From an uncultured bacterium (GTDB taxonomy: Bacteria; Acidobacteriota; HRBIN11; JAKEFK01): a DNA stretch of 64,000 bases. Within the stretch, counting starts at the first letter, position 1. The number at the start of each line of letters is the position of its first letter. The stretch lies in NCBI GenBank assembly GCA_963777505.1, contig CAVZQN010000003.1:544001-608000 (forward strand), written 5' to 3'. The position numbers and the translations under genes were made by a program. Of this stretch, positions 32,148 to 53,543 are shown piece by piece. Under the pieces are notes generated by a model. The model was not told where the DNA came from and ran no database searches. It saw only the letters and a program-made list of their open reading frames with translations.

Positions 32148-32158
32148 AAATCCTCCTT

Positions 32159-37509: not shown

Positions 37510-38694
37510 TTACTTCATCTTTGCTTCAAAGTATGAAGGAGCTACCTGTCGCATTAAGAATTTTGGAATGAGCCCCTGTCTGTAGAAATTAATTCCGGTA
37601 CGAACAAATTTCCCTTTCCATCCAGATTCTTCCGCCTCTTCTTTGATTTTTGAAAAACGATTTAACGCTTCGCGTTCAGCCATATCAAGAATCGGGGAGC
37701 CTTGATCCCATGTTTGTTGCAGTAATCGGGTCAGCCGTGGAGTTAGCATTTTTTCGATTAGACTTCGGATTTCGATCGGCTTCATACCGGCATAAAACAT
37801 AGTTCCACCTAAAACTCCTCCGCAGTTGCTGATGAAATCAGGAACACTCAAAATGCCTGCACGTTGAAGAGCCGTCTCCGATTCCGGCATAATCGGACAG
37901 TTTGCTCCAGATGAAATTATGGCAGCCTTGATGGCTCCAACATTTTCATTATTAATGCTTTCGCCGGCTCCGCACGGACATAGCAATTCCACAGGCAAGG
38001 TTAACAATTCTTCAATCGGGATTTTTTCGGCTCCCTGAAAGTCCTTAACAAAAGCGCTACCGTGTTTTTCGCTGAGGGCAATTAAGTCCGGAACATTAAA
38101 CCCTTTGTCACAAAAGATTGCTCCTTGAGATGTTGAAACGGCAACGATTTTCGCTCCCAGTTCAGAAAGAAATAATGCGACTGCAGAGCCTACTTTTCCA
38201 AATCCTTCGATCGCTGTAGTTATACCCTGGATTTTTTTTCCAATGTGATTTGCAGCAACGAGTGCGCAGACTACAACTGAGCTGGCTGTAAAAAAGCCGG
38301 ACTGTTCGCGCGTTGGCTCTTGGACGTTGTATTCCGATGTTCTAAATGTTTGATCAATTTCCGCGCGCGTTGTGCCCATATCTGAATGAGGATAAAATCT
38401 GCCATCTTTCACAACAGGTTCAATTGCCGCACAAAACTTTCGAAGCAGGGCCAACTTTTCTTGTGGCGAACCTTCCGGATTTCCTATGACTCCGGCTTTT
38501 GCACCGCCATTTGCAATTCCAACAAAACCAAACTTCAGCGTCATTTTGTACGCAAGCGTTTGGAGTTCAGAAAGCGTAACATGCGGGCTAATCCGCAGAC
38601 CGCCGTGTGAATGATTGTTAATCATCGAATCGATGACTACCCAGCCGAAAGGTTTTCGGTCATCATCCAACGCTTCATAACAAACCTTATCCAT
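37510..38694 (-). CDS. Glu/Leu/Phe/Val dehydrogenase family protein
   Basis: GGLR, MTLK, GGAKAG, DMGT, EGFGKVG, GAN, PDFISNCGG. Likely start MDKVC. Confidence 0.85.
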   Translation of the reverse strand: MDKVCYEALDDDRKPFGWVVIDSMINNHSHGGLRISPHVTLSELQTLAYKMTLKFGFVGIANGGAKAGVIGNPEGSPQEKLALLRKFCAAIEPVVKDGRFYPHSDMGTTRAEIDQTFRTSEYNVQEPTREQSGFFTASSVVVCALVAANHIGKKIQGITTAIEGFGKVGSAVALFLSELGAKIVAVSTSQGAIFCDKGFNVPDLIALSEKHGSAFVKDFQGAEKIPIEELLTLPVELLCPCGAGESINNENVGAIKAAIISSGANCPIMPESETALQRAGILSVPDFISNCGGVLGGTMFYAGMKPIEIRSLIEKMLTPRLTRLLQQTWDQGSPILDMAEREALNRFSKIKEEAEESGWKGKFVRTGINFYRQGLIPKFLMRQVAPSYFEAKMK

Positions 38695-38803
38695 TAACAA
38701 TCCAATGTTTGTAGTTAGGCACGCAGCCGAGCGAACGCGAGGCAGTGCCGTAAAATGCAGAGAACGTGCCTTACTACAATCTGATGACGTCCGCGCTCCC
38801 TTT

Positions 38804-39604
38804 TCACTTCGGTTTAACAACGCGGAAAGCAATGTAGTATCCGGTCAAATATTTTGTAGGCCATCGTTGCAGTACTTCAAAGCGACTCATTATTTTCCCG
38901 GTAAATCGATTCAAAAAATCCCACTTCAAACTTTCGCCAATCCAAGTCAACAAAATTGCAGGAGCGCGAGGTGCATGCGCAACAGCTGTCACATCAGTTA
39001 CTTCCAAACCAAATTGTTCAAGTTGTCGTTTTCCATCTTTTACGCCGCATGTTGAACCAACAAAATATGGAACAAGGCCCAGACGATTTAACCAGTGAAA
39101 TGGCAAATGATTCCGCAGCCAGACAACAGGATTCGATGGATTATCAAGCGTTAACACCATAACACCACCTGGAGCTAGAACGCGTGCCAGCTCCGAAAAT
39201 GCTTTGGAAAGTTCACCTTTTTTTTCGAAGTGATCCAGCGATGAACCGGAAAGAATTCTGCCGATGCAATCGTTCCGTAACGCGACATTCCGCAAATCAC
39301 ATACAAGCATTCCCGAATTATGACCGTTCTGATTAAATCGATTCCTTGCAGCCTGAACCACGGACAGCGATCGATCTATTCCAATTGTTCTACCGCCTAA
39401 ATCCTTCAGCGGCCCTTGCGTGCTGACCGCTTCTTCAAACAAATCCGTTTTCAACGTAAATGAATTTCGTTCCGGAAGCCATGCAACAATTAATTTCCCG
39501 TACACATAACGCATGTAAGAACGCCAGACATCTATCGGAGCGCCCTGCCGAGTCTTTTCAGCAACTTTATCCCAGTACTTAGGATCCATTAATTCGGGGC
39601 TCAT
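38804..39604 (-). CDS. Class I SAM-dependent methyltransferase-like protein
   Basis: LKTDLFEEA, GIDRS, SSLDHF, RVLAPGG. Confidence 0.75.
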   Translation of the reverse strand: MSPELMDPKYWDKVAEKTRQGAPIDVWRSYMRYVYGKLIVAWLPERNSFTLKTDLFEEAVSTQGPLKDLGGRTIGIDRSLSVVQAARNRFNQNGHNSGMLVCDLRNVALRNDCIGRILSGSSLDHFEKKGELSKAFSELARVLAPGGVMVLTLDNPSNPVVWLRNHLPFHWLNRLGLVPYFVGSTCGVKDGKRQLEQFGLEVTDVTAVAHAPRAPAILLTWIGESLKWDFLNRFTGKIMSRFEVLQRWPTKYLTGYYIAFRVVKPK

Positions 39605-41043
39605 TATGAAAGAGCCTTTTTTTTACGAAGTTTTGGTTTGTGTCTGGTATCCGGATGCAGAATCAAAGAATGAAGTGAAGGATATTGACCGGATCCAATC
39701 GAACGATACCAGAAGGTTAACGGATTCGATGCTGAAACATCACTTTGATAACCTGCTATTGCAGCCTGAATAAACTTAATCGGTGTTACGCTGCGCGGAT
39801 CTCCAAGAACTTTTCTGCTAATTTGTGACGGAAAAATAATGTAATAAACATTAAAGAGTAAGAAGGTCCAGAGTACCAGCGCCGTGCTAACTGCGAAAGC
39901 GGGCTTGCGCCAATACAGAATGATTTCGTAAAGCCCTATCACCCAGAATATATATAGATGGGTCAGGAATCGATTTCCGAAACTTGCGCCTGGCCATATC
40001 ACGCGAAAAAAACAAATACTGCCAACAACGCTCAAAATACAAAGCGCTGCCAGAATGGCATAAGGCTTTCGTTTAATGATTCCAACGATCAGACCGCAAA
40101 TCGACAGAATTGTCACTGGTGACCATACAAAAATTCCAATTGAAGGGTGAAATCCGATGCTTCTCAGCACCTTAAACATCCGAAAATAGTCATGAACATC
40201 ATCTGTATTCGGAACTGCATAACCAGTCGTAACAAGCCCGCCATATTGCGTTGTATTGAAACATAACTGAAGTATCAGTAGAGGAATACCCCCTGCAACA
40301 ATTTCGGAAAGTGTAATCAACATGCGTTTTTTGCCGTGTTGTCGTTCGAAATAAAGAAGCCACAAAACGATCGGCGGAATTAGAAAGACATTGATGTTTC
40401 TTAGAAGAACCGATAGTCCCAAAACAAATCCAAGCAAAACATTTCGTAGATGAGATTTTTCGACCTGAGCAGGATCTTTGCGAACGGTAATGTAAAAAAT
40501 CATAGAAACGATAAAAGTATCCGAAGCGTGAATGAATGATGGCGTTGTAAAAGTATAAAAAATGAGTGGAGTGCCACAAAAAATTGCGAAACTAATTAGA
40601 TATGCTGTGGTCTTTTCTGTGCCTACATTCAGTAGCGTTTTGTACGCAACGAAAATTGACAGAAATCCAAACAACAGCGTACCGATGAAAATAGCAAGCG
40701 TATCAGTAAAGGGAAATGTCGCGTTTTGTGCGTAGGGTCTAACTGAATTGAGCGAAGGAAAGAGGGTGCTTAACGCCAGTAGCGGAGCATAGAGGAGGGA
40801 ATAGCCGCAAGAATATTGAGATGCAATGCGATTTGTTATTGGAGATTGGAATGTTCGAAGGTCGCGATACAAATGAGATTCATTTGTAAGATCAAAATTA
40901 CCATCATGAATTAAGCTCTTTGTAAGAGCGTAATAGGTAATTCCATCATTCTGGATTACTGCTCTTCCGTAAAAAAGAGCCATCCCAAAAAAGACAAAGA
41001 GAAACACTGCCGTTGCAGGCACACGACGACTCAACGCACTCAC
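39604..41043 (-). CDS. Polytopic membrane protein, GT-C glycosyltransferase-like
   Basis: NDGITYY first-loop motif, about 11 TM helices, GASFGNRF; adjacent to the flippase. Confidence 0.6.
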   Translation of the reverse strand: MSALSRRVPATAVFLFVFFGMALFYGRAVIQNDGITYYALTKSLIHDGNFDLTNESHLYRDLRTFQSPITNRIASQYSCGYSLLYAPLLALSTLFPSLNSVRPYAQNATFPFTDTLAIFIGTLLFGFLSIFVAYKTLLNVGTEKTTAYLISFAIFCGTPLIFYTFTTPSFIHASDTFIVSMIFYITVRKDPAQVEKSHLRNVLLGFVLGLSVLLRNINVFLIPPIVLWLLYFERQHGKKRMLITLSEIVAGGIPLLILQLCFNTTQYGGLVTTGYAVPNTDDVHDYFRMFKVLRSIGFHPSIGIFVWSPVTILSICGLIVGIIKRKPYAILAALCILSVVGSICFFRVIWPGASFGNRFLTHLYIFWVIGLYEIILYWRKPAFAVSTALVLWTFLLFNVYYIIFPSQISRKVLGDPRSVTPIKFIQAAIAGYQSDVSASNPLTFWYRSIGSGQYPSLHSLILHPDTRHKPKLRKKKALS

Positions 41044-42506
41044 ACTCCGGGTTCTATTCTGCGTCTATTTAAAACGAAAGAGCGCACGATTTCAATTTCT
41101 TTAGTTGTAAATTCGCCCAGTAATAGATACGCAATGATAACCACGAGTCCAAGACTGCAGAGTTTAAGAATCAAAAGTAGGCCTTCGGCATGCCAGTATG
41201 AACACGCGAAGTACATCGGTATACCGATCGCGAAGGTTCGAAGGAACGTTCCTATTGCAGGCAATGTTTTCCACATATGGTAAACAACAATCATCGAAAT
41301 AATCGCCAACAAAATTGAAAGGCATGTTGTCACGATTGCTGCTCCAAGTGCGCCAAATTTTGGAATAAATAAAAAGTGGCCAACAATTGCGAAAGGAACA
41401 CATGGACCTACAATACGAAATGTCCAATGTGGTTTTTCTGAAGCTGTAATGATTGCACTCGTTGCAGAAGAAATTGAAACGCAGAGAGCGGAAAAGATTA
41501 ACAGTGAAAGCAAAGGCGCTGTTGATGCAAAGCGATGTCCGAAGAAAAACTGAACAATTTCCAATGATGATCCCGCGACGATAGCTCCAAATGGGAGTAA
41601 AAGGACTGTAATGCGGATTGAATCCTTAATGAGTGCTTTGGCTGATGAGTGATCGCCAATTCTTAACAACCGGCTGAGGGTTGCCAGCAGTACTGGTGAA
41701 AATGATAATGCAAATATTCCTGGAAGAATCGATAGATTTTGTGCAGCTCCATAAAAACCAGCAATCGCTGTGCTGCCTCCAAGAAGTTTCAACATCAAGA
41801 TATCGAGCTTATCGAATGTTCTCATACTTAAACCAGATAAAGAAAGTGATGCAGCAATATTCCAGAAGCGGCGTGAATCAAAATCAGATTTAGCGAAAAG
41901 TGGAACTTGAATGAAGTAGCGGCCAACAATTACTTCAATACAGGATGCGGCAATACATCCCAGAATCGCGCCGTAAATCGACAGCCCCAATTGGACCAGG
42001 ATGACGATGAGAATGAATCTTCCTATCCAGCGAGCGACACTCAGATAAGCTCTTTGAGTGAAAGCGCCGATTCCAATAAGAAGCTGACGATGAGCTTGAG
42101 CTAAGCCAAAAATAGGAATGTCCAAACTGAACAGACGCAGGTAACCTGCCAGGGCTGGTTCATTCATTGCGTGTGCGATTGGGCCTGCAAGCAGAAGTAG
42201 CAAAACCATGATGAATAGGCTGAAGATCAGATAGAAGCGAGTCGTGACTCCCGCCACCGGTTTCCAGTCTTTCGTTTCGCCAACGAGCTTGATCGTAGCG
42301 CGTCCGAAAATTGTGCTAAGACTCCATTCGATCCATGCAACGATCGTGCTTGTAAGAATGAAAAGTCCAAACTCATGGGGACCAAGCCGTCGCGTAAGAA
42401 ATGAAACAATCAAAATTCCGGTAGGTAAAATCAAGAGTTCACTTGAAAGAACTCGAACGGTTCCTTTGAAGGTATGATGCCCGGTTGGCTGATCAGTCTT
42501 TTCCAT
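41040..42506 (-). CDS. Wzx-type polysaccharide flippase
   Basis: TRRLGPHEFG, DKLDILML..G.....GFYGAA, LFIPKFGALGAAI; 12-14 TM helices. Confidence 0.85.
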   Translation of the reverse strand: MEKTDQPTGHHTFKGTVRVLSSELLILPTGILIVSFLTRRLGPHEFGLFILTSTIVAWIEWSLSTIFGRATIKLVGETKDWKPVAGVTTRFYLIFSLFIMVLLLLLAGPIAHAMNEPALAGYLRLFSLDIPIFGLAQAHRQLLIGIGAFTQRAYLSVARWIGRFILIVILVQLGLSIYGAILGCIAASCIEVIVGRYFIQVPLFAKSDFDSRRFWNIAASLSLSGLSMRTFDKLDILMLKLLGGSTAIAGFYGAAQNLSILPGIFALSFSPVLLATLSRLLRIGDHSSAKALIKDSIRITVLLLPFGAIVAGSSLEIVQFFFGHRFASTAPLLSLLIFSALCVSISSATSAIITASEKPHWTFRIVGPCVPFAIVGHFLFIPKFGALGAAIVTTCLSILLAIISMIVVYHMWKTLPAIGTFLRTFAIGIPMYFACSYWHAEGLLLILKLCSLGLVVIIAYLLLGEFTTKEIEIVRSFVLNRRRIEPGV

Positions 42507-42551
42507 CGAAAATAAATTATACTGGCGCTTTGTGCCGATTCGGAGTCAGCA

Positions 42552-43049
42552 ATGTTAAAGGGTTACGCCAGGGTATTTGGGGATAATATCGATACAGATG
42601 CAATCATTCCTGCTCGCTATTGTACGTCTTTCAATGAAGATCTGGGGCTCCATTTGTTTGAGGGAGAAGATCCAACTTTTTTGAAGCGATTGAAAAAAGG
42701 GGACATGATCGTTGCTGGTTCAAACTTTGGATGTGGCAGCGCAAGAGAGCACGCACCTGTTGCAATAAAGTCCGCAGGCATTTCGGCAGTCATTGCGAAA
42801 TCATTCAGCCGCACTTTTTTCCGGAATGCAATCAACATCGCGCTTCCAGTATTGGAATTGAGTGATGCGAATGAAATTCGCGAAAATGATCTGATTGAAA
42901 TTGATACCGATCAAAATGTGATTCGTAACCTGACGAATTCAAAGGAATACATTGCGGCGCCTTTTCCTGAATACATAAAGCAGGTCATTGATGCAGGCGG
43001 CATCATCGAATTTGCCCGAAGACGGTTGGCGGAAAAAAAGAGTTCATAG
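42552..43049 (+). CDS. leuD: Isopropylmalate/homoaconitate dehydratase small subunit
   Basis: DNIDTDAIIPARY, NFGCGSAREHA, SFSRTFFRNAIN. Confidence 0.88.
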   Translation: MLKGYARVFGDNIDTDAIIPARYCTSFNEDLGLHLFEGEDPTFLKRLKKGDMIVAGSNFGCGSAREHAPVAIKSAGISAVIAKSFSRTFFRNAINIALPVLELSDANEIRENDLIEIDTDQNVIRNLTNSKEYIAAPFPEYIKQVIDAGGIIEFARRRLAEKKSS

Positions 43050-43056
43050 GAAGTTA

Positions 43057-44397
43057 ATGGCTGCTAATCTCTTCAAAAAGTTGTACGGCAGTTCAGTCAT
43101 AGCAAGAAATCTTCCGCATCAAACAAACGTTCCATTCCTGCCGCGTGAAGAATTACATCGACTGCGCGACAAGCGTCTTCGGGAAATGATTGACTATGCC
43201 GCAAATACGGTTCCATATTACAGAACCTTTTTCAAAGAACACAAAATTGATCCATCCGAAATCAAGACCGTTGATGATCTGATCCGGCTCCCACTCATTG
43301 ATAAACAAACAGTTCGTAACGCGCCTCGCACTTTTGTCTCTGAATCAAAGGAAGGCAAGGAATCGATTCAATTTGTTACAAGTGGTACGACAGGTAAGCC
43401 GCTTGAAATTTATCATGATGTGAAATCACTACTTGCGAATATTGCTTTTGGAGAAAGAGAGAAAGATGTTGTCAAAAAGCTTCTTACAGGTTTCAGCTAC
43501 AAGGAGCTTTATTTTGGCTACACATCATCCACAATACAAAAGGTAAGAGACATTTATAATGAATGGACTTTTTCCGCCTCTCAAGAACAAAAACTATTTC
43601 TTTCCGTTCTTCAGCCTTTGGACGAGATTCTGGATGGGATCAATCGTTTTAAGCCTACTTTAATTGTGGGCTATGGCTCGTTTTTGGAAATATTATTCCG
43701 CACAATCCATCAAAGAGAAATTCAAATTCATTTGCCGAAACTATTGATCTATGTAGCAGAAGCAATGACACCTGAAGGAAGAAGGTTGATTGAGGACTCT
43801 TTTACGATTCCGGTGCTTTCAAGATACAACGCCGTAGAAATTTTCAAAATTGGATATTTTTGCGAAGCGCGTAAAGGGTTCCACGTTCATGAAGATCTTT
43901 GTCACCTAAGGATTGTTGATTCGGCGAAAAAGACGGCAAAAACAGGTGAGAAGGGAGAAGTTGTTATTTCGAATTTCGTAAATAAAGGTACGGTTTTGCT
44001 GAATTATCGTTTAGGAGATATTGCTGCAATAATGGATGAAGAATGTCCTTGTGGTAGAACCTTCCGGATTCTATCTGAATTAGAAGGGCGAACAGAAGAT
44101 ATTGTTTTTCTTCCTGATGGAAGTTTTGTCCATCCACGCGCAATTTGGAGTGTATTTAAAGACAGTCACGGAGTCCTTCAGTATCAGCTTATTCAATATG
44201 AACCACAGCGTTTTGAATTGAAACTCGTCACCGTTGATAAGAAATCATATGACGCTGTGATTGAAAAGATTTTAAGAGAGTTGAAAGCTCTATTCGGAAT
44301 TTCTTGCTCTATAGAAAGTGACTTTTATACCGAAATTAATAGAGAAGGAAAATTCCGGCCGGTTATCTCTCATTGCAGGCCTAGCGAATACAAATAA
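43057..44397 (+). CDS. Phenylacetate-CoA ligase/F390 synthetase-like adenylate-forming enzyme
   Basis: VPYYR, LPLIDK, TSGTTGKP, LLNYRLGD, CPCGR, EGRTED. Confidence 0.85.
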   Translation: MAANLFKKLYGSSVIARNLPHQTNVPFLPREELHRLRDKRLREMIDYAANTVPYYRTFFKEHKIDPSEIKTVDDLIRLPLIDKQTVRNAPRTFVSESKEGKESIQFVTSGTTGKPLEIYHDVKSLLANIAFGEREKDVVKKLLTGFSYKELYFGYTSSTIQKVRDIYNEWTFSASQEQKLFLSVLQPLDEILDGINRFKPTLIVGYGSFLEILFRTIHQREIQIHLPKLLIYVAEAMTPEGRRLIEDSFTIPVLSRYNAVEIFKIGYFCEARKGFHVHEDLCHLRIVDSAKKTAKTGEKGEVVISNFVNKGTVLLNYRLGDIAAIMDEECPCGRTFRILSELEGRTEDIVFLPDGSFVHPRAIWSVFKDSHGVLQYQLIQYEPQRFELKLVTVDKKSYDAVIEKILRELKALFGISCSIESDFYTEINREGKFRPVISHCRPSEYK

Positions 44398-44431
44398 GAG
44401 TTCATAAGTTCCTTCCTCAGGGTTCAGCTAG

Positions 44432-45139
44432 TTACATACGTTTTGCGACAACAAAAAAATTTCGTCCAGCAAACTGTACGCCTGGAAGGTTGCTGAAACG
44501 CTCTAGGGATTTTGAAATACGAAGAGAAGGGATTGGATTTCTACCGGGATTCAGAAAAAAATTGTAGAAGCCATAGTCTACGATTTCAAAGCCGTTGCTT
44601 CTTAAATCTTTTTTTAGTTCTGCAAGAGTGTAAAGATGAAATGACTCTTTCGATCTTGGTTTTAGTCTCGCGTTCATTTTAAGCAGGAGACTCGACTTGT
44701 TTGTGCACGTAAAAACTAAAAATCCATCGGGTTTTAATATGCGGAAAGCTTCTTTATAAAATTTTTCTGGTGATTCGAAACATCCCATGACTGATACTGC
44801 GATGACTCCGTGAAAGCCTTTCGCATGAAAAGGAAATTGTTCAGCGGTGCCCTGTAACAAGTTCAAATGTTCGAAGCGTTTCTTTGCTGACGCGATCATG
44901 CTTCGATCATGATCGAGGCAAATTAACTTGAGTCCTTGAGCGGATAGATCGTTAGCGAGATGTCCGGTTCCACAGCCAACATCAAGCCAATATTGTCCTT
45001 TACTGCTACGGGACAAACTTATTTCTTGAGCGATTTTTGTGCCGCGATGAAAAATCCATTGTGCGGGATCAAGTTTGGCTGAATCATAGATTTGAGCCCA
45101 CTCTTCTGGATCGAATTTATCGCTAAATTTTCCGTGCAT
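44432..45139 (-). CDS. Class I SAM-dependent methyltransferase
   Basis: LDVGCGTG; RILKPDG. Confidence 0.88.
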   Translation of the reverse strand: MHGKFSDKFDPEEWAQIYDSAKLDPAQWIFHRGTKIAQEISLSRSSKGQYWLDVGCGTGHLANDLSAQGLKLICLDHDRSMIASAKKRFEHLNLLQGTAEQFPFHAKGFHGVIAVSVMGCFESPEKFYKEAFRILKPDGFLVFTCTNKSSLLLKMNARLKPRSKESFHLYTLAELKKDLRSNGFEIVDYGFYNFFLNPGRNPIPSLRISKSLERFSNLPGVQFAGRNFFVVAKRM

Positions 45140-45170
45140 CCATCCATCAATCCGTTAATCCACTCATTTA

Positions 45171-45248: not shown

Positions 45249-45259
45249 AAAGCGGTCTC

Positions 45260-46823
45260 TTATTGCTTAATCAGAGTTTGCATTTTAAAGCCGCTTGATA
45301 CTTGTGGCTTTTCGCGAATGATTTGTAGCGTATCCGCTTGCTTCCAAAAATGGGACGCGATGTTCGCTCCAGGACCTTTGCTGCGTAAGTTATTCAAAAT
45401 TGCATTAGCAAAATATTTTTCATCCCGGGATCTTCACATGCGGACTGATTTTAATCATTAATTTTACCAATCCGTCTTCATTTTGACTTTCTATATACTG
45501 ATAATCATCCGGCGCCCCACCGACACTTTGTATCAATTCTGCTATAACTTCATCCAGCACTGACCCAGGCAGAGTCATTCCTTCATATGTGAACTTATCA
45601 AAACTTCGAACTTGTGAAACAAGCAAGTTCATTCCTGTATTTCCAAACAAACAAGCGCAAGTTCTTTCACGAAGTGTTCCATGATCCCCAAGTTCTGTAT
45701 TGAGTAAAACCTTGGGAGTATTTTCGGATAGCGTTGTAAACAATAAGGCCTTCACATACTTATTGTCGGAAGCGGCATGCCGTTCGCGCTGAATCAACGC
45801 CATACGATCCGTGTAAACGTGCATCGAGTCGGCTTCGTCAGCATGATTGCATCCTCCTGCGATCAATCCAGATTCTGTTGCAACAAAACGTGCAAATGCT
45901 TTTACACCAGCCGATTGAAGATATTTGAATCTTCGATCCGTTAATGCCTCACCGCCTGTGAACATGGTACAACCACTGATGTCTATTCCTTTTTCAATTG
46001 CCGCTTGTACAATTCGAATCGCGGAGCTTGCAAAAGTTTTTACAATACAAAGTCCTTTTTCCTTGAGTTGTTTTTCGATCCAAATTGCAATTCGATCTGC
46101 CGAAGACATTTCAATGAATTCAGGTGGTGAAACTGGTGTCCCAAGAATTTGGCTGCATCGAATAACGTATTGCATCTTTGCGCGGCTTTTGAAATCAGGC
46201 TGTAGTTGAGAAAACCATTTGTCGGGAGGCTTTCGAAATCGCAAATGCATCAACAGATTGTGGATTCCTGAAATGCTTGGAAGAGAAGGAAGCCAGAAAG
46301 CTGAGGGGGCATTGGATAATCCATGAGTCTCATAAAGCAACATTTCATTTGCAGATTCTTCGGATATAAAGGCCCAATCGTAAAGCATTCTGGTTGGTGT
46401 AGAGGTTGTGCCGCTTGTCGAAGCACGAATGCCTTCCGGTAAGAGACGAGGATTATCGAAATCTGATTCTCTAGTCTCAATAGTCAGTCCATTCCTGCAA
46501 ATTGGAATCTGTGATTTGAATTCTTCCCGCGTTAGATAAACACCATCATCCCTCAATGTTTCAAGGCTAGCTTGTAACCCAATGGAACGAATGCTTTTTT
46601 CTAAATCACTGTAGTGACAATCAACACTGGACAAAAGTTTGCTGTATGGACTCTGAGGGTTGTCATAGATTAATTTTTTACAAGCTTCCAGGAATCTTTT
46701 TTCTTTGTTTTCAATTCGAAGCTTAATTTCCTGAATCGCTTGATCACGGAGAAGGGGCCTGCGTAAATAGGGTAAGAATCCTAAAGCAACTTTCAATTCG
46801 CGATGGATCTGGCTGATGCGCAT
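45260..46823 (-). CDS. Divergent PaaK/F390-synthetase-like adenylate-forming protein; apparent +1 frameshift near 45424
   Basis: STSGTT, TGGEAL, LLNTELGDHG, C.C motifs. Removing one base in ATCCCGGGATGA extends the frame (PDEKYFANAILNNL...TLIKQ) to TAA at 45260. Confidence 0.7.
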
Positions 46824-46825
46824 TG

Positions 46826-47683
46826 TTACGATTCAGCCATCACTTTATCCAGAAAATTCAAATCAACATAATCCGTTGGTATTTTCTTTATGTACCCTAA
46901 CTCTTTCATTAAAAACAGTACTTTCTCTCTCGCTTGTGTATTTCGCACTGCTCCAACATCAGGCTGGTTCCGTAAGAGCGCTTGGTGGATGAAGCGTGGA
47001 TTAATTCCAATATGACGGTATGAAATTTCGGCAGTTTCTTCAGGGTTTTGTTTAACAAACTTCCATCCGTGAACGAAACCTCGAACGACCCGTTCAACAA
47101 TCTCAGGATTATTGTTTTTAAAGGGAACCGTTGTTGAAAGTGAGCATCCTGGTGCTCCCGGCCAGACATCACCGGTCCGTTTTACAATCCTTCCAATTCC
47201 AAGTAGCTCAAGCATGGTTGCATACGGTTCAACCATTGAAGCCGCATCCACACCTTCTCCGAAAAACGAGATGATTGCGCCATCTCCCGAAGGTTGACGG
47301 ATTAGATCAACATTTTTCCATCCGAGGCTTTCCATCAAACCCATTGCTGTGAGATCTTTCATTCCGCCGCGAAGCGGAACCGCAACTTTCTTAACTTCAG
47401 TAATATCCAGATTCTTACGTACAACAATCGCAGCTTCTTCAAATCCCGAACCAGCGACTACGACAAGTGGAATGTCATTTACTTCAGCCGCAGCAACACG
47501 TGTCCATGGAATTACTGCAAATTGGCTCTCGCCACTCATTAACTTAACAGGAACCATCCACGCAGTTGGCTCAATATTGATTTCTGAATCGATGTCTTCT
47601 TCTTGAAAATATCCTTTTGCATGAGCTACATAAGCCGGTGTTTGACATACACCACGTAATAATGAGAAACGAACTTTCGTCAT
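46826..47683 (-). CDS. SsuA/NMT1/THI5-like periplasmic-binding-protein-fold protein lacking a signal peptide
   Basis: PAYVAHAKGYFQEEDI, G.VDAASMVEP, NNPEIVERVVRGF; no hydrophobic N-terminus. Confidence 0.75.
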   Translation of the reverse strand: MTKVRFSLLRGVCQTPAYVAHAKGYFQEEDIDSEINIEPTAWMVPVKLMSGESQFAVIPWTRVAAAEVNDIPLVVVAGSGFEEAAIVVRKNLDITEVKKVAVPLRGGMKDLTAMGLMESLGWKNVDLIRQPSGDGAIISFFGEGVDAASMVEPYATMLELLGIGRIVKRTGDVWPGAPGCSLSTTVPFKNNNPEIVERVVRGFVHGWKFVKQNPEETAEISYRHIGINPRFIHQALLRNQPDVGAVRNTQAREKVLFLMKELGYIKKIPTDYVDLNFLDKVMAES

Positions 47684-47710
47684 TTGCGTTTTCTCCCCAG
47701 GTGATTCGGG

Positions 47711-49168
47711 TTAATTGCTTTTTAAAGTCTCAGCAATTCCATCTTGTGTTAATTTAAGCAAGCCGGGAGCTATATCAAGCAATGAAATGTTTTGCCTTTC
47801 AAATTTTTGCACGATGCTAGGCCCGGCACAAGCAAAAAATCCAGTTTCTGTATGATTATTCGTTCGGTAAAGTTTCGGTTTTTGCTGTGTCAATTCCGTT
47901 TCAGGATGTTGAACTCGCTCCAAAAAGTACGAAGTTGGCCTCCACTTTATGAATATGTCAGGCAGGTCATTAGGAGGTCCTGTATGGAAAATATCTGCAG
48001 TTCGAATTACTTTTTCCACCGCAGGGAGATTCGATACCGGATCTATCAGTTGTTTAAGATTGGTTTCTAATTCATTCAACAACTGCGTGTATTCATTTCC
48101 TTGTTTCACAATTCCTTGAGGTTCGCGTCCTTCCAGGTTGACGCGAAGCAGTCCGGTGTAGTTTGAAGGAAGAGCAAAGGCTCTTGTCTTTCCCCAGTTC
48201 GTGTTCCTGCCAAACAAATCCGAAAGAAAGCGTTGTCGAAGTTTCGGTGGCAAAACGGAACCAGCAGCGCTGCGCAATGTTTCTGGAATGACCTTTTGCG
48301 CAAACGCGCCTGGTTTGAATGAAGGCACATGATTTTTATGTTTGATCTGGTATCCCAGTTTCAAACAGAACGCTTGTGTCAGCCCACCTGTTGGATTCTG
48401 ATCTGATATTCCCATCGGGCTAACGATAAAAATGTTTGCATTCTGAGGCAATTGTTGAAGCATGTGATTGAACTGAAGATCAATCTCTTGATAAACATTG
48501 CGGAGTGGATTTGGGATACTTCCGCTATTATTGCGATATTTCCAAAATTGATGTCCTGCAATATGGGATTCTGAAAACACAATCACGATCAAATCGAATT
48601 GCTCTTGCTGCAAAAACTGGCAGGCGAATGCTCCTTTCTTTTGTATCCTTTTTATTAGCAGTTGATAAATCCGGTTATCGTCTTCCTCTGAGGCGCTGAA
48701 CTTTTCTCCTGCGTTTATCTGCGGCCCGGCAGTCTTGAGGAATTCGGAAGGGTTGCTGGATGGAGAATCCATCGCATTGTGTATCGCCCAATTTGACAAT
48801 TGATATCCCGTTAGTCCTTTGATGGGATAAACCTCAGGCGCATCAATGATCAATATCTTCGATTGCAAGGATTGCCAAAACGGATAAGCTTTCGAATTAG
48901 CGAGGTTGACAGGCCTGACATCATAGGTTCCTGGGACGAGTTGGCGGAAGTAGTAGTAGCCATGATCTGATCGTGACATTCCGCTGAAAAGAGAAAGCCA
49001 TAAACCATGCGCAGAAATCATTTCATGATCAGAAATTTCGCCGCAGTTCCCATTCCGGATAATTGAAGCTACATTCGGAAGATAGCCTTCATTGCTCCAA
49101 CGTTTTAAGAATTCGGGAACACCAGCATCGATGCCAAAAACCACAAGAGGAATGTTTTTGATTTTCAA
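47711..49168 (-). CDS. Alkaline phosphatase superfamily protein (nucleotide pyrophosphatase/phosphodiesterase-like)
   Basis: VFGIDAG, W.S.FSG..DHG.Y, SHIAGHQFW, LRVNLEGREPQG, DIAP. Confidence 0.8.
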   Translation of the reverse strand: MKIKNIPLVVFGIDAGVPEFLKRWSNEGYLPNVASIIRNGNCGEISDHEMISAHGLWLSLFSGMSRSDHGYYYFRQLVPGTYDVRPVNLANSKAYPFWQSLQSKILIIDAPEVYPIKGLTGYQLSNWAIHNAMDSPSSNPSEFLKTAGPQINAGEKFSASEEDDNRIYQLLIKRIQKKGAFACQFLQQEQFDLIVIVFSESHIAGHQFWKYRNNSGSIPNPLRNVYQEIDLQFNHMLQQLPQNANIFIVSPMGISDQNPTGGLTQAFCLKLGYQIKHKNHVPSFKPGAFAQKVIPETLRSAAGSVLPPKLRQRFLSDLFGRNTNWGKTRAFALPSNYTGLLRVNLEGREPQGIVKQGNEYTQLLNELETNLKQLIDPVSNLPAVEKVIRTADIFHTGPPNDLPDIFIKWRPTSYFLERVQHPETELTQQKPKLYRTNNHTETGFFACAGPSIVQKFERQNISLLDIAPGLLKLTQDGIAETLKSN

Positions 49169-50640
49169 TCCTGACGCGCAAAAAGGCCAAGCGCTTTTAC
49201 AAGCCTTGATTCAACGGGAAATCTTACATCCATATTTCTGACGCGATACCGCGCCAACGGTGAATAAAGCTTTGCAAGTCCAACCACAATTGGATTGGTT
49301 TTTCTATAAGGATTGACAAAGTTCTCACCGAGAAACATTAACGGGAAATCAAGATTCTCAATCAGGTTTTTTGTACTGGGCGTAATCCATGTTGATTCTT
49401 TTGGAATATTGCGGAAATTAAACTTTGCCCATTCTTCAAGGCGATCCGGTTCTTTCAATCCGCATTGAAGCGCGACGGAATACAATTCAGTGCCGGGATA
49501 GGGTGTATATATATTGAAAGTTTTCGCAGACTTCGGATTTTCTCTGACTAGTTGGTCAGCTAGTTGAATGCTTTGTTGAAATTCATCGGGTGTTTCTGTC
49601 GGCATTCCCATCATGAATAAATAAAGCGGGATGATGGGATAAGGCGCGATCTTACGGTTGGCTTCAACTACTTCTTCGACACTGACATCTTTCTTAATTA
49701 GGTCCAGCACCCGTTGGCTTCCCGATTCAATTCCAACCGTTAATCTCTTCACTCCGGCTTTGACCAAAAGATCCAAGAACTCTTTATCCATCTTGCAGAT
49801 CGTATCGGCACGGATTTGCAGCTTACTGATTGTGATATTTAGATTCGCCTGAACGATTCCCTCCAGAATTCCATACGCTCTTTTCATATCAATGAAGAAA
49901 TGATCGTCCGTAAATAAGAATCCGTGAATGTTGTAATCTCGAATGATTTGTTTCAATTGATCCAAAACAGTTTCAGGCTGCATGGCGCGCCATTTCCTTT
50001 GGTGCATTACCGGATCCCAGCAAAAACTGCAACGAAACGTGCATCCGCGGCTTGAATTAAATGTGATGTGATCAACACCAAACAAAGTCCGCCTGTATTT
50101 ATCCATGTCCACAAGATGATAAGAAAGAGATGGTTCTGAATTAATATTTACAAACGGACGGCTTCCTGTGAATTGAATTTTGCCATCCTGTTTATATCCA
50201 ATCCCATTCACTGTGCTCAGTGGTGTTCCTGATTGAAATGCTTTCACCAGTTCTTCAAAAGTTTCTTCACCTTCACCGACAACAACAACATCTATATACG
50301 GATTTTTTAAGGTCTGTTCCGGAAGTAAACTTGCATGAATTCCACCCCAAACAACTGGTGTGTCAGGGTATTTTTCTTTAAATGTTTTCGATGCTTCAAG
50401 AGCGCGCAATATTTGTGGACCAGTCATCGAGGTAACGCCAAGACAGATCGGTTTAGTAGACATCGCCTGCCGAAATTCCACTTCCCAATTGGGATCCGCA
50501 AATTGATCAACGATTTTGATTTTGTATCCCTGTCGATCAAGACGAGTTGCAGGACAAAGCACACTTAACGGCAATTCAACGCGTCGATGTGCTTGAAAGC
50601 CGGCACGCGGAGCGGGATTAAACAGGACAACATCAATCAC
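49165..50640 (-). CDS. B12-binding domain radical SAM protein
   Basis: VWGGIHAS, VGEGEET, SRGCTFRCSFC (CxxxCxxC), GIESGS, TPYPGT. Confidence 0.92.
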   Translation of the reverse strand: MIDVVLFNPAPRAGFQAHRRVELPLSVLCPATRLDRQGYKIKIVDQFADPNWEVEFRQAMSTKPICLGVTSMTGPQILRALEASKTFKEKYPDTPVVWGGIHASLLPEQTLKNPYIDVVVVGEGEETFEELVKAFQSGTPLSTVNGIGYKQDGKIQFTGSRPFVNINSEPSLSYHLVDMDKYRRTLFGVDHITFNSSRGCTFRCSFCWDPVMHQRKWRAMQPETVLDQLKQIIRDYNIHGFLFTDDHFFIDMKRAYGILEGIVQANLNITISKLQIRADTICKMDKEFLDLLVKAGVKRLTVGIESGSQRVLDLIKKDVSVEEVVEANRKIAPYPIIPLYLFMMGMPTETPDEFQQSIQLADQLVRENPKSAKTFNIYTPYPGTELYSVALQCGLKEPDRLEEWAKFNFRNIPKESTWITPSTKNLIENLDFPLMFLGENFVNPYRKTNPIVVGLAKLYSPLARYRVRNMDVRFPVESRLVKALGLFARQD

Positions 50641-51239
50641 TAAACACCTCTTCTTGGCAGATTGAAAATTTTTCCTATATGCCCATACTGTTCGTCTGCT
50701 AAACGGGCAAGCGGACGTAACAAATTCTCTTGAATCTCTCCATCCATATATAGAGCATCATCAATATGGAATAACAATACTTTTGCAATAACTAAAGAAT
50801 GATTCGATTCACCGAGGGTTAATATGTATTCCATTCGGCACTCCATTTGAATTGGAGATTCAGAAATTCGCGGTGCCTTTACAATTTCAGCAGGGATCGC
50901 AGTGATGCCAGCTTTTTCAAATTCGCTGACCGTGGGCGGATAGTCAGACGATGTTGTATTTACAGCCAGAGCGTGACTTTCCGTGACAATGTTGACAACA
51001 AACTCACCGCAGAATTCAATATTTTTTAACGTATCTTTCTTTTCGCCATCACGCCTTGCAATCGAAACTGCGATCATCGGAGGTTTTGTTGCAACAAACG
51101 TGAAACAACTGAATGGCGCAACATTGTTGATCCCGTTTTCTCCAACAGTTGAAATCCAGGCAATAGGACGCGGGACTACACATCCTTTCAAGAGGCGGTG
51201 AGCGTTATCGTCATCTAATCGACTGGGATCAATCCGCAT
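50640..51239 (-). CDS. Flavin reductase-like protein
   Basis: VVPRPIAWIST, NVAPFS, KDTLKNI..GEFVVN, APRISESP, PLARL. Confidence 0.9.
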   Translation of the reverse strand: MRIDPSRLDDDNAHRLLKGCVVPRPIAWISTVGENGINNVAPFSCFTFVATKPPMIAVSIARRDGEKKDTLKNIEFCGEFVVNIVTESHALAVNTTSSDYPPTVSEFEKAGITAIPAEIVKAPRISESPIQMECRMEYILTLGESNHSLVIAKVLLFHIDDALYMDGEIQENLLRPLARLADEQYGHIGKIFNLPRRGV

Positions 51240-52420
51240 TTTTCTTCAACATATTTACGAAGCTCTGTTGTTAATGAACATTCTGCCGGAATCACAAATT
51301 CAGGTACCGCGGCACTTTCGGGTAAGGGACCTGCTCCGCCAGTTAAACAGCAAAGGACAGACTCACCGCGGCAGATCAAACCGTCGTTGATCGCTTTCAA
51401 TATTCCAGTACCCGCAAGAAGCCCGGCCTTTTCAATGTAATCTGCTTTGCCATTCACGCGGATGACGGTCGGTTGTATGCCTGCCTTTGTAAGAAGTTCG
51501 AGATAATCATCAAGATATTTTTCAAAATCTGCGACACGAACCGCCATCATATGTCCGCCTACAACTTGCAATATCTCATTGAGTAGGGGATAGGTTTGTG
51601 CCGGATTTGCGTTATAAAGCGCGGGTTCTATGAAAGGCTCACCAGTGCCATCAAAATTTGTGGATGCTAAATTATCCCGTTTGTTATTCCATGCTTCAAC
51701 AATTGGTGAAACTCTTGCTTGTTGTATTCCCAAAAATTTTGGAATCCATTGCGGATCAATTTCTCCTGATTGCGAAAGTTCTCGCAAGGTTGTAAAAACT
51801 CCAATCGGACCGAACCCTGCACATACTGCCTGACCGAGCCAATGAAATCCGTGCTTCATTTGTCTCATCGATTCAGCAATGAACAAACTACGGAAACGGG
51901 CTGAAAGGAGCCTCCATTCCATTTTTGGGATTACAGGTATATTGCAGAATGAAGCAAAAAGAGTTGCTGCTTCTTTTACCCTTTGATCCTGTCCTTGAAT
52001 CGCAATGAGATGTGCGCCAGGACGTTCAAAGAGTCTTCCATCCAGTTTGAATAGAGTATTTGTTGGGCAGAAAAAGAAAGTTTCCAGGCCAATTTTGCCG
52101 GCGTAATCTGTTAATGCGACACCAGTATTTGCACCGGATGAAAATGCAACTTGTTTGTATCCTGAATTTTTGCAAATCGCTGTTGTAAGACAACCATCAA
52201 GCGACTTATATGTTCCCGTTTTCATTCCACTCGATTCATCCAGTAAGAAAAGCTGAACGCCATGATATTCACCAAGTTCCAGGATCCGTGAACCCTCTTG
52301 CTGTGTAGTGAGTTGAATCGCATCAATCAATCCATCGGAAAGCAAAGCAGAGGCATAGCGCAAAATTAGTCTGCTGCCTGAACTATATGAAGGATCAATC
52401 TCAAATCGAAGCTGATTCAT
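51215..52420 (-). CDS. PLP-dependent fold-type II enzyme, threonine/cysteate synthase-like
   Basis: DES..MKTGTYKSLDG (PLP Lys), SSGANTG, QAVCAGFGP, CCLTGG. Likely start MNQLRFE at 52420. Confidence 0.7.
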   Translation of the reverse strand: MNQLRFEIDPSYSSGSRLILRYASALLSDGLIDAIQLTTQQEGSRILELGEYHGVQLFLLDESSGMKTGTYKSLDGCLTTAICKNSGYKQVAFSSGANTGVALTDYAGKIGLETFFFCPTNTLFKLDGRLFERPGAHLIAIQGQDQRVKEAATLFASFCNIPVIPKMEWRLLSARFRSLFIAESMRQMKHGFHWLGQAVCAGFGPIGVFTTLRELSQSGEIDPQWIPKFLGIQQARVSPIVEAWNNKRDNLASTNFDGTGEPFIEPALYNANPAQTYPLLNEILQVVGGHMMAVRVADFEKYLDDYLELLTKAGIQPTVIRVNGKADYIEKAGLLAGTGILKAINDGLICRGESVLCCLTGGAGPLPESAAVPEFVIPAECSLTTELRKYVEEKCGLIPVD

Positions 52421-53543
52421 GTTCTTGCACAGTTCTAATAATGTCGATGATTTCTTCTTCCGTACATCCTTCTCGTTCTTTAAGAATCGCCAGAAGTTTC
52501 GGAATTTCTTCGGGTGTGACATCTTTACCGCTCTTTTGCAAAAAGGGCTGAAGTGCGGCAGTGTAATCGACCGGCAAATTGAAATGGTACGTGCGATGCG
52601 TACCAATCTGTTCCGGTGGAAATGGTTCAAAGGCACTCGGATTACCGCCCGCAATACAACGGATGTGCATCACAGGGAGATGAGCAAAGCAGTAATCACC
52701 TACGATTGGTTTAGTAGGCGAATTTTTCAAACCTGTAATTCGTTCGGTAAGCTCTGCTAATTCGCGAAGCCGATGCGTATCAAGGCCTGTTGAGTATTCA
52801 AATAAATTTTCAAGAGCAAGTGCTACTTCTTCAAGCGCAGCATTTCCAGCTCTTCCACCGATTCCATTAACAGCAACATCCACCGCTGTTGCGCCGCCTT
52901 CAATGGAAGCCAGTGAGTTCGCTGTAGCCATGCCGTAATCATTATGACAGTGCACAAGAATGGGCAATTGCGAAGTGTTCAGAATGTCAGAAACAAGAGA
53001 CCGCATCTTGGAAGGAATCATGATTCCGACAGAATCGTAAACGACTAAACGCGTTACGCCGAGATCTTTCAGCGGCTTTACGATTTTAAGCAAGCGTTCA
53101 ATTGGTGCGCGTGTAGAATCAATAAGTCCTACTCCAATTTGCAAGGATGTTTTCCGCGCGTATTCAAGCACAGTTTCCAAACGGTCTTGAATTTCTTCAA
53201 CGCGCATTCCGTACAAAGCTGGATCGGACAACAAATAATCAGACGTTGGACCAAGAACATCGATCCGGTGGATGTCATGTTCCGCTGCAAGGTCGATATG
53301 TTTCTTCCAGCGCTGCGTATAAAAAGGAATCAGAGCAGTCGCACGGATAGCAAAGCCATTCTCTTTTATGAGATCGGCAACTTCTAGGCATGCGGCAACC
53401 CCGTCAGGCAGGCCGATTTCAATTTCTGGAACACCAATATCATTCAGAAGTCTAATAAATTCGCGCTTCTGTTCTAATGTGATATTGGAACCAGGCATTT
53501 GAATGCCTTCACGCAGAGTCGTGTCACGGAGTAGAACTCTCAC
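52401..53543 (-). CDS. Homocitrate synthase/LeuA-family (DRE-TIM) acetyl-CoA condensing enzyme without a regulatory domain
   Basis: RDTTLREG.Q, HCHNDYGMATANS, NGIGGRAGNAALEE; GTG start with RBS. Confidence 0.85.
   Translation of the reverse strand: MRVLLRDTTLREGIQMPGSNITLEQKREFIRLLNDIGVPEIEIGLPDGVAACLEVADLIKENGFAIRATALIPFYTQRWKKHIDLAAEHDIHRIDVLGPTSDYLLSDPALYGMRVEEIQDRLETVLEYARKTSLQIGVGLIDSTRAPIERLLKIVKPLKDLGVTRLVVYDSVGIMIPSKMRSLVSDILNTSQLPILVHCHNDYGMATANSLASIEGGATAVDVAVNGIGGRAGNAALEEVALALENLFEYSTGLDTHRLRELAELTERITGLKNSPTKPIVGDYCFAHLPVMHIRCIAGGNPSAFEPFPPEQIGTHRTYHFNLPVDYTAALQPFLQKSGKDVTPEEIPKLLAILKEREGCTEEEIIDIIRTVQEHESASI

Follow-up and report, generated by a model that had tools for sequence, protein, structure and literature searches.

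In specialized metabolism, 2-oxo acids are elongated by AksA/AksD/AksE/AksF on the way to coenzyme B, by the Hph gene products on the way to homophenylalanine and by the MAM (methylthioalkylmalate synthase) pathway on the way to the glucosinolates. The gene cluster described here shares parts of this equipment. It lies in a stretch of 64,000 nucleotides (hereafter the window; positions 544,001 to 608,000 of contig CAVZQN010000003.1, GenBank assembly GCA_963777505.1) from an uncultured bacterium of the Acidobacteriota, and comprises about 17 genes at 37510-55096 of the window together with a LeuC gene at 60916-62220 (Table 1). We propose that these genes form one accessory biosynthetic system, the product of which is probably an unusual methylated acid or amino acid attached to the cell envelope; the chances of this full reading, envelope attachment included, we put at about even. 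The cluster resembles several known systems in parts and fails the defining features of each. The cluster family is widespread but patchy across phyla and has apparently escaped description: no paper describing the gene combination turned up among the listings and abstract openings returned by literature searches, and NCBIfam holds no model for its PLP (pyridoxal 5'-phosphate) enzyme, its B12-radical SAM (S-adenosylmethionine) enzyme, the methyltransferase MT1, the alkaline-phosphatase (AlkP)-like protein or the GT-C protein. Every gene named in a preliminary description of this stretch was recovered in the open reading frame (ORF) list and in Pfam and NCBIfam scans, the weak identifications by profile or fold; the overlapping start and stop codons it had pointed out are likewise real, many neighbouring genes overlapping by 1-25 nt or abutting.

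Like the Aks, Hph and MAM modules, the cluster has a LeuA/homocitrate synthase (HCS) paralogue without a regulatory domain, and paralogues of LeuC and LeuD lie in or near the cluster, both in the window and in the related loci L125 and L130. It differs from these modules in having no clustered LeuB/AksF-type dehydrogenase, in the rarity of LeuC and LeuD in the wider family (one and none of 74 loci, respectively) and in the loss of the canonical ED motif of the LeuA-like enzyme; the modules, for their part, do without the PLP enzyme and flavoprotein that are obligate partners here.

The phosphinothricin, FR-900098 and Pseudomonas fosfomycin pathways employ a homocitrate-synthase-like enzyme (Pms/FrbC/Psf2), an aconitase-like isomerase and the B12-radical SAM enzyme PhpK. 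The cluster shares with them a LeuA/HCS-like enzyme, an aconitase-family isomerase, amination of an oxo acid and a B12-radical SAM enzyme, the last of which is here of another, unnamed family. A phosphonate or phosphinate pathway of the phosphinothricin or FR-900098 type would account for these similar enzyme types, for the matches of PhpK-family models at about 96 bits and for the resemblance of the AlkP-like protein to phosphonoacetate hydrolase. The PhpK score, however, is far below the cut-off of 600, and phosphoenolpyruvate (PEP) mutase is missing both from the genome, whose best match to TIGR02320 reaches 39.6 bits against a cut-off of 319.55, and from the families that recur in the 74 loci. 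Because the genome has no PEP mutase, we reject such a pathway as scarcely credible.

Three-part periplasmic glycosylation is carried out by the Arn (ArnC/ArnEF/ArnT) and Gtr (GtrA/GtrB/GtrC) systems. The window likewise has a flippase and a predicted GT-C-fold transferase, and related loci carry a family 2 glycosyltransferase (GT2), a small membrane protein, a flippase and a GT-C enzyme. Unlike Arn and Gtr, the window has neither a GT2 nor sugar-nucleotide-modifying genes, its GT-C protein belongs to a rare family of 30 members without a Pfam model, and the cargo would come from a pathway unlike that for 4-amino-4-deoxy-L-arabinose or glucose. Cysteate synthase is known from the archaeal coenzyme M route and, as CapA, from the capnine sulfonolipids. 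Cysteate and threonine synthases are of the same fold-type II PLP family as the PLP enzyme of the cluster and are its best named matches, but it scores about one-sixth of their cut-offs or less and always has a flavoprotein partner, to which it is once fused. In staphyloferrin B biosynthesis, SbnA and SbnB (a fold-type II PLP enzyme and an NAD dehydrogenase) make 2,3-diaminopropionate, and a dedicated citrate synthase, SbnG, is present. Compared by description, both systems pair a fold-type II PLP enzyme for beta-replacement with a redox partner and devote a synthase to a hydroxy acid; here, redox partner and synthase alike come from other families, and the siderophore synthetases of the NIS (nonribosomal-peptide-synthetase-independent siderophore) type are absent.

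The core enzyme trio

The near-invariant core of the family consists of a LeuA/homocitrate-synthase-like metal enzyme, a threonine-synthase-like PLP enzyme and a flavoprotein. The first of these matches the HMGL-like family (PF00682) at 194.7 bits (cut-off 29), has homocitrate synthase 6ktq as its best solved relative (E 9e-52) and carries no LeuA_dimer regulatory domain in the Pfam scan. Its ligands for the metal and the 2-oxo acid, R28/E29 and H215/H217, correspond in the alignment to R12/E13 and H195/H197 of chain 2ztj and are conserved across the family. Where solved HCS and isopropylmalate synthases have the motif (R/E)F(S/T)(A/C)ED, e.g. RF(S/T)AED or EF(S/F)CED, the enzyme reads GVGLID; most of its family, the relatives of the nitroreductase type, read GVGFPH, and the genome's own LeuA paralogue reads YVTED. 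The canonical positions in 2ztj are R133, S135 and E137; R133 would hold 2-oxoglutarate by its distal carboxylate, and the proposed base for acetyl-CoA would be the Glu. The protein also falls below every curated cut-off (NF002085, 267.6 against 517 bits; nifV, 236.7 against 462.9). Judged from its sequence, it fits the standard form of neither homocitrate synthase nor isopropylmalate synthase, and it could be a variant of aldolase-like character.

The PLP enzyme matches PALP at 38.5 bits (cut-off 35) and stays under all curated cut-offs, reaching 52.4 against 303 bits for threonine synthase (NF006050) and 39.2 against 324.9 for cysteate synthase (TIGR03844). Its K72 is invariant in the family alignment, where it stands in a TGTYKSLDG-type motif, and we infer that this residue is the PLP (Schiff-base) lysine. 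Look-ups in the ESM Atlas returned generic names only; the feature-based search places the enzyme with a 'cysteate synthase' cluster (0.91). Among its 187 homologues, P0001, on a 44-kb contig, is 96% identical, and another (P0009) is fused to a flavin reductase, and because of this natural fusion we regard the PLP enzyme and the flavoprotein as coupled. A predicted complex of the PLP enzyme with the flavin reductase scored 0.01, which counts neither for nor against the pairing. If our reading holds, the LeuA-like enzyme with its rebuilt active site, the PLP-flavin pair and the B12-radical SAM family would each offer a new type of reaction to characterise.

Recurrence of the gene set and the leucine-type genes

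An alignment-based scan for the PLP enzyme, with one genome taken per species, yielded 74 loci. By database labels they span at least 12 phyla, including Planctomycetota, Verrucomicrobiota, Acidobacteriota, Gemmatimonadota, Binatia, Thermodesulfobacteriota and Dadabacteria, and further Rokubacteria, Latescibacteria, Krumholzibacteriia, Riflebacteria, Nitrospirota, Actinomycetota and Myxococcota. That the genes belong together, as the preliminary description assumed, is borne out by these loci from other species and by metagenome loci; because the set recurs, its arrangement is more than chance. The counts in Table 1 were obtained by tblastn with the window proteins, a second figure giving the count with a coverage filter. 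A flavoprotein gene adjoins the PLP gene in 68 of the 74 loci; it is of the nitroreductase family, directly upstream of the PLP gene, in 62 and of the Flavin_Reduct family in six, and no locus has both.

Additional families were obtained by clustering all ORFs of the loci and scanning representatives. Directly after the trio, 21 loci (19 by clustering) have a gene resembling nonribosomal peptide synthetases (NRPSs), with adenylation, thiolation and thioesterase domains (A-T-TE); other recurrent products are a radical SAM/SPASM protein (14 loci), a GT2 (13), an FAD oxidoreductase of the PRK07208 type accompanied by a small membrane protein (12), a second Polysacc_synt family (7) and MurF-like ligases (4). 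Parts of SsuA-type ABC transporters also occur; L023, L024 and L035 have the SsuA-family protein accompanied by ABC and permease components. In NRPSs the Asp of motif A4 binds the alpha-amino group. The A-T-TE protein has TGQA as its A4 motif, as against SFDI in a canonical NRPS of the same loci, and the missing Asp suggests that it would load a keto or hydroxy acid, the product of the trio.

The loci take two forms, a short one with the trio and A-T-TE, and a long one in which the trio is joined by the B12-radical SAM enzyme, MT1, the glutamate-dehydrogenase (GDH)-like enzyme and envelope or ligase genes. The window has the long form with Flavin_Reduct, and its closest counterparts are L020 from the Verrucomicrobiota and L031 from 'Bacterium HR37', the latter with ten window genes shared. 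It is conceivable that the trio constitutes a new three-enzyme route to a previously unknown carbon-branched acid or amino acid, used by at least 12 phyla in two ways, the product being either taken up by the NRPS-like A-T-TE protein or methylated by the B12-radical SAM enzyme and fixed to the envelope through polyprenyl phosphate, flippase and GT-C; this wider proposal is tentative, and we think it somewhat doubtful.

A metagenome scan with the single PLP protein gave no loci, and one with the PLP alignment gave 18, with the LeuA-like gene in 16 and Flavin_Reduct in seven; one of them, L127, is the same contig as L021. The PLP gene was absent from 40 sampled relatives at E<=1e-20, so that only the window's own genome among 41 (a tally that includes one unpublished genome, G035, on which nothing but the genome tallies depends) contains it, and because of this absence we regard the distribution as patchy and accessory. 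Synteny with a genome of the same genus, G001, gave no limits for an island, the protein on the left flank being unmatched at E<=1e-20, the dehydrogenase on the right flank only 35% identical and the kinase matched by 108 paralogues; G001 proteins are in general only about 35-55% identical to those of the window. If the proposed system is real, many mostly uncultured bacteria of soil, sediment and freshwater (by database labels including Acidobacteriota, Binatia, Gemmatimonadota, Thermodesulfobacteriota, Planctomycetota and Verrucomicrobiota) have in common a building block that has gone unrecognised, as well as the enzymes that make it.

The LeuD-type subunit passes TIGR02087 (178.3 bits, cut-off 108.95) and falls under the leucine-specific TIGR02084 (199.4 against 245.85); the LeuC-type subunit passes NF001614 (576.2, cut-off 385) and TIGR01343 (544.5, cut-off 385.7) and is just under the leucine-specific TIGR02083 (589 against 610.65). 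The preliminary description had assigned the displaced LeuC to the cluster. In the metagenome locus L130, the last 93 residues of a LeuC that is 86% identical to it are encoded 130 bp upstream of genes for a LeuA-like protein (71%) and a PLP enzyme (54%). In L125 the order is LeuC-LeuD-LeuA-like-PLP-Flavin_Reduct-B12-radical SAM, all in one direction with overlapping ends, and a PRK07208-like oxidoreductase, a GT-C protein of the PMT_2 family and a GT2 are encoded upstream of the core. Because both loci carry isomerase genes beside the core, the LeuC of the window belongs to the cluster. The isomerase is thus a recurring part of the Flavin_Reduct subtype, outside the core of the wider family.

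The Leu-type genes might alternatively be the plain leucine or lysine pathway of the organism, placed among glycan genes by chance. Such an origin is in keeping with the whole-genome absence of a LeuA with a LeuA_dimer domain (the genome is 95.9% complete) and with the finding that the LeuC and LeuD of the window are its best-scoring isomerase subunits. The genome nevertheless has a second, family-conserved LeuA-type gene with the canonical ED motif at C6:88628-89851 and a LeuB above the NF002898 cut-off at C4:818337-819455, while in the cluster family the LeuA-like gene adjoins the PLP gene in 68-69 of the 74 loci across many phyla, with LeuC and LeuD beside the core in L125 and LeuC in L130. 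There is also a second, weaker aconitase-family pair at C4:1672582-1674560 (locus L096, 2683-4660, minus). This second form occurs in six of six genomes of the same family, as a fused LeuD-LeuC frame of 650-712 aa in five, the frame of G005 being truncated at 400 aa; the window's own genome divides it between two frames, of 157 and 517 aa, that overlap by about 50 nt. The relatives themselves have no close counterparts of the cluster's genes: their best matches to the LeuA-like protein, LeuC and LeuD are 26-43% identical (33-43% for LeuC and LeuD), and in the same family those to LeuC and LeuD are 33-37% identical and lie inside the fused frames. We therefore consider it very improbable that these are simply the organism's leucine or lysine genes. 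The Leu-type genes of the cluster are additions specific to this genome, although LeuC and LeuD retain some likelihood of a housekeeping role because the fused form is split here. The question whether these are the only leu genes of the genome thus has a divided answer, the missing regulatory LeuA and the best-scoring LeuC and LeuD pointing one way and the lack of close counterparts in relatives the other.

LeuB had been reported absent from the window, and a genome-wide search agrees, the three matches of the leuB model lying on contigs C4, C11 and C1. Keto-acid chain elongation, around which the cluster was first thought to be built, does not hold as the conserved logic of the family, given the near absence of LeuC and LeuD from the 74 loci, the lost acidic motif of the LeuA-like enzyme and the unclustered LeuB, and this idea is corrected here. 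The notion of a specialised accessory pathway stands, and the link to the envelope is plausible.

Table 1. Features of the cluster and its promoter, with the number of the 74 loci from other species in which each window gene was found (second figure, count with coverage filter).
Feature	Position in window	Strand	Basis	Loci of 74
Glu/Leu/Phe/Val-type (GDH-like) amino-acid dehydrogenase	37510-38832	minus	ELFV_dehydrog, 136 bits	27
SAM methyltransferase MT1, extended conserved core	38804-39604	minus	Methyltransf_11, 41.8 bits	26
Predicted GT-C-fold membrane glycosyltransferase, rare unnamed family	39604-41043	minus	Fold match	0
MOP-family (Wzx-like) flippase	41040-42506	minus	PF13440 Polysacc_synt_3, 62.3 vs 23; PF01943 Polysacc_synt, 52.5 vs 28.2	8
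LeuD-type small subunit of isopropylmalate/homoaconitate isomerase	42552-43049	plus	NCBIfam	0
PaaK/F390-synthetase-like ligase PaaK1, downstream of LeuD	42988-44397	plus	NCBIfam	8 / 7
Class I SAM methyltransferase MT2	44432-45139	minus	Methyltransf_11, 72 bits	6
Divergent PaaK-like adenylate-forming ligase	45420-46823	minus	Homologue profile	13
NMT1/THI5/SsuA-family protein	46826-47683	minus	Pfam NMT1; SsuA_fam, 69 bits, below cut-off	3
AlkP-superfamily enzyme, NPP/phosphonoacetate-hydrolase-like, cytoplasmic	47711-49168	minus	Profile and fold	8 / 7
B12-binding radical SAM enzyme, unnamed highly conserved family	49165-50640	minus	PF02310, 60.1 bits; PF04055, 88.6 bits	31 / 30
Flavin reductase	50640-51239	minus	Flavin_Reduct, 91.2 bits	6
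Fold-type II PLP enzyme, threonine-synthase/cysteate-synthase-like	51215-52420, ORF open to 52654	minus	PALP	
LeuA/homocitrate-synthase-like DRE-TIM enzyme	52401-53594	minus	HMGL-like and HCS_D2	69 / 68
FHA-domain sigma-54 enhancer-binding protein, first gene of operon	53634-55052	minus	Pfam FHA, Sigma54_activat, AAA_lid_14, HTH_8	
Sigma-54-type promoter, -24 GG / -12 GC, TTGGCACAACGGTTGCT	55080-55096	minus	Exact consensus match	
Ser/Thr protein kinase with TPR repeats	55199-57559	minus	Pfam Pkinase, TPR_12, TPR_10	
LeuC-type large subunit, about 7 kb displaced from operon	60916-62220	minus	NCBIfam	1

Tailoring and the proposed route of attachment to the envelope

The B12-radical SAM enzyme reaches the cut-off of no NCBIfam model, BchE being its best match (175.6 against 481 bits); HpnJ (141.6 against 577.6), PhpK (96.4 against 600), HpnR and other named subfamilies are likewise missed. 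Its identity to homologues in other phyla is 57-75%, and its family, which is wider than that of the PLP enzyme, counts at least 1646 proteins at E<=1e-50, with 64-82% identity among the 120 matches listed. A locus from the Verrucomicrobiota (L019, 2303-8554) has three B12-radical SAM paralogues in one cluster, 45%, 56% and 59% identical to that of the window, and L128 has two copies.

The AlkP-like protein has no Pfam match; it was identified by a profile (E 9.8e-8) and by a Foldseek search (E 1.5e-12, probability 1.00) with an AlphaFold model of mean predicted local distance difference test (pLDDT) 79.8. Its orthologues in G002-G005, of the same family (about 40% identity), adjoin no other cluster gene, and because they stand apart this gene is no marker of the cluster. 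The NMT1/SsuA-like protein has no obvious signal peptide to the eye; together with the divergent ligase and a methyltransferase, it forms a trio of its own that recurs in L020, L031 and L051. The divergent ligase also lacks a Pfam match, and a profile of 13 homologues matches solved structures of PaaK (phenylacetate-CoA ligase) at E 7.9e-8; PaaK1 matches the models FlxY, DVU_1553 and PaaK (E 5e-39 to 1e-28) without reaching the cut-off of any.

The GDH-like enzyme keeps two lysines of the catalytic region and is far under its best equivalog (162 against 750 bits). In glutamate dehydrogenase, the Lys of PAKGG binds the side-chain carboxylate of glutamate. At this position the enzyme of the window has His, and 24 relatives have Cys (most of them), Arg or Ser; in the genome's other ELFV-type paralogues, three in number, the lysine persists, within PAKGG in two cases and within PVKGG in the third.

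These residues bear on the possibility that the building block is a sulfonate, in which the PLP enzyme would act like cysteate synthase on phosphoserine and sulfite, the dehydrogenase would give sulfopyruvate, the LeuA-like enzyme and LeuCD would extend it, and the SsuA- and AlkP-like proteins would handle sulfonates or sulfate esters. Such a unit could be attached to the envelope or released as a free metabolite. The His or Arg in the pocket of part of the GDH-like family could bind an anion, but most members have Cys there. The cysteate synthase model TIGR03844 does match the PLP enzyme (E 3.7e-10), and the Atlas cluster noted above bears the same name; its 39 bits, however, stand against a cut-off of 324.9 and are exceeded by the 52 bits of the threonine synthase models. 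SsuA-family proteins occur in the window and, with their transporter partners, in the three loci named above, whereas the AlkP-like protein is nearest to nucleotide pyrophosphatases/phosphodiesterases (NPP) and phosphonoacetate hydrolase rather than to sulfatases, and the Pfam scan revealed no sulfite-forming gene in the cluster. A sulfonate unit is in our view quite unlikely.

The 39604-41043 product has weak sequence matches only, and its 30 homologues are all labelled hypothetical. In its AlphaFold model (pLDDT 87.4, predicted TM-score 0.89), the top 36 of the listed fold matches are GT-C transferases, including AglB, ArnT, ALG9, STT3, AftB, PimE, Emb and PglB (TM 0.45-0.51, probability 1.00, E down to 6.7e-6), and among all 44 listed the exceptions are four low-probability transporters or channels. 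By this model, the protein folds as a GT-C transferase. Among 26 sequences, D33 and D47 are invariant and D49 is nearly so; these lie within the N-terminal residues 33-50, which may belong to the first extracytoplasmic loop. BLASTP finds no similarity between this protein and the PMT_2 protein of L125 (E 0.39), and the two are of different GT-C families.

A route can be proposed from these assignments. The LeuA-like enzyme would join a two-carbon or a pyruvate-derived (three-carbon) unit to a 2-oxo acid, and in the subtype of the window LeuC and LeuD would isomerise or dehydrate the product. The GDH-like enzyme would interconvert oxo acid and amino acid, the PLP enzyme and its flavin partner would catalyse a beta- or gamma-replacement or an elimination, and the B12-radical SAM enzyme and the two methyltransferases would supply methyl groups. 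The finished acid would then be adenylated by the two PaaK-like ligases and coupled to an amine or hydroxyl acceptor, probably a sugar on a polyprenyl phosphate carrier, after which the carrier would be flipped through the inner membrane by the Wzx-type protein and its load passed by the GT-C enzyme to an acceptor in the envelope. The NPP-like enzyme and the SsuA-like protein are given no step in this scheme.

Several observations weigh against the proposed route and its end point. Claisen condensation is not assured because the Glu of the canonical ED motif is missing from the LeuA-like enzyme, the search of the genome with the leuB model places no LeuB-type dehydrogenase in the cluster, and the PLP enzyme misses all curated cut-offs. 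The Pfam scan reveals neither a GT2 nor a sugar-nucleotide gene in the cluster of the window. Of the 74 loci, only 15 carry a flippase family, and the A-T-TE gene after the trio points to a released small molecule in those loci that have it. Moreover, all frequencies are conditional on the PLP gene, by which the loci were picked, and with many contigs truncated they represent minimum values. Attachment to the envelope is plausible, but attachment to a glycan is the part of the proposal we hold least firmly, because the window has neither GT2 nor sugar-nucleotide gene and because about a quarter of the family (19-21 of 74) uses an NRPS-like enzyme.

Alternatively, the same enzymes could yield a small molecule that is exported in free form, for instance a metallophore of the polycarboxylate kind or an acid or peptide resembling an antibiotic; the MOP protein would then be its exporter and the GT-C gene a neighbour with an unrelated envelope function. 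The A-T-TE protein, which by its A4 motif probably loads a keto or hydroxy acid, fits this explanation, as do the MurF-like and PaaK-like ligases, which could form amide bonds without a glycan, and the absence of the window's GT-C family from all 92 other loci. It leaves aside, however, that GT2, the PRK07208 oxidoreductase, the small membrane protein, flippases and another GT-C recur beside the core, and that in the window Wzx, GT-C, MT1 and the GDH-like enzyme are encoded as one unit with overlaps of 1-4 nt. We regard a free metabolite as rather unlikely. The connection to envelope glycans made in the preliminary description reappears in the related loci, in the form of MOP flippases, GT2, GT-C and the PRK07208-type FAD oxidoreductase; the MurF-like ligases of four loci also speak for it, and we retain attachment to the envelope as the preferred reading.

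Operon layout, regulation and neighbouring loci

The layout of 37510-55052 suggests three transcription units. The first, on the minus strand (53634-55052 down to 44432), comprises the genes for the FHA-sigma-54 activator, the LeuA-like enzyme, the PLP enzyme, flavin reductase, the B12-radical SAM enzyme, the AlkP-like and NMT1/SsuA-like proteins, the divergent ligase and MT2; the second, on the plus strand (42552-44397), LeuD and then the PaaK-like ligase; and the third, again on the minus strand (42506-37510), the tight group of Wzx, GT-C, MT1 and GDH-like genes. Gene ends overlap or abut at 39604/39604, 41040/41043, 49165/49168, 50640/50640 and 51215/51239.

The site at 55080-55096 contains, at 55080-55095 on the minus strand, the sole exact match to TGGCACNNNNNTTGCW in the 64 kb of the window, against about 0.06 expected by chance on both strands by simple arithmetic. 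It falls within the 146 bp that precede the activator gene, at a distance of about 28 nt from the first start codon of that ORF and about 55 nt from the likely ATG, upstream of both. A relaxed search with up to two mismatches is unenriched (34 matches, 33.3 expected), so the weight rests on the exact match and its position. The probable start of the activator is the ATG at 55025, preceded by a GGAAGGAG ribosome-binding site; its gene ends 40 bp upstream of the LeuA-like gene, and rpoN is present in the genome. From these sequence features the operon appears to start at a sigma-54 promoter with its own FHA-domain activator. FHA domains read phosphothreonine, and the adjacent kinase with TPR repeats is by position a candidate for signalling through the FHA activator to the sigma-54 promoter. 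The window offers a complete regulated example, with sigma-54 promoter, FHA activator and neighbouring kinase, in a 95.9%-complete genome, and therefore knock-out, heterologous expression and product isolation can be planned directly.

Several FHA and kinase signalling genes surround the cluster. A second FHA-sigma-54 activator (57552-58937, plus strand) is divergent from the TPR kinase gene, and a second Ser/Thr kinase, with PD40 beta-propeller repeats (62241-63998, plus), lies beside LeuC. The TPR kinase has 108 matches at E<=1e-20 in the 6-Mb genome G001, and its family is very large in this lineage.

At the other end of the cluster, the minus strand at 34762-36964 encodes a bacterial microcompartment (BMC)-domain shell protein of 105 aa beside a protein of 611 aa whose N-terminal half is an aldehyde dehydrogenase, a pair suggestive of a partial microcompartment locus immediately adjoining the cluster; an OsmC-like gene (37047-37469) follows these two. 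Further away, 16771-21573 (plus) is a block for 3-deoxy-D-manno-octulosonic acid (Kdo) with a KdsB-like cytidylyltransferase, a KdsA-like DAHP_synth_1 protein, a KdsD-like isomerase with SIS and CBS domains, a KdsC-like HAD phosphatase and an embedded PyrG (CTP synthase), and it indicates a lipopolysaccharide-bearing envelope. A single ORF of 1667 aa at 5102-10105 (plus) combines TamB, POTRA and Omp85 domains, inner- and outer-membrane parts that are usually two proteins. A TonB-dependent-receptor-like outer-membrane barrel at 24961-27013 (minus) appears to be divided between two ORFs that overlap: 25673-27013 encodes CarboxypepD_reg and the first portion of the barrel, 24961-25722 a later portion, and the split may reflect a frameshift or a sequencing error. 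Finally, a Mg-chelatase/ComM-like ATPase is encoded between two genes of the PD-(D/E)XK_3 nuclease family at 30211-32593 (minus).

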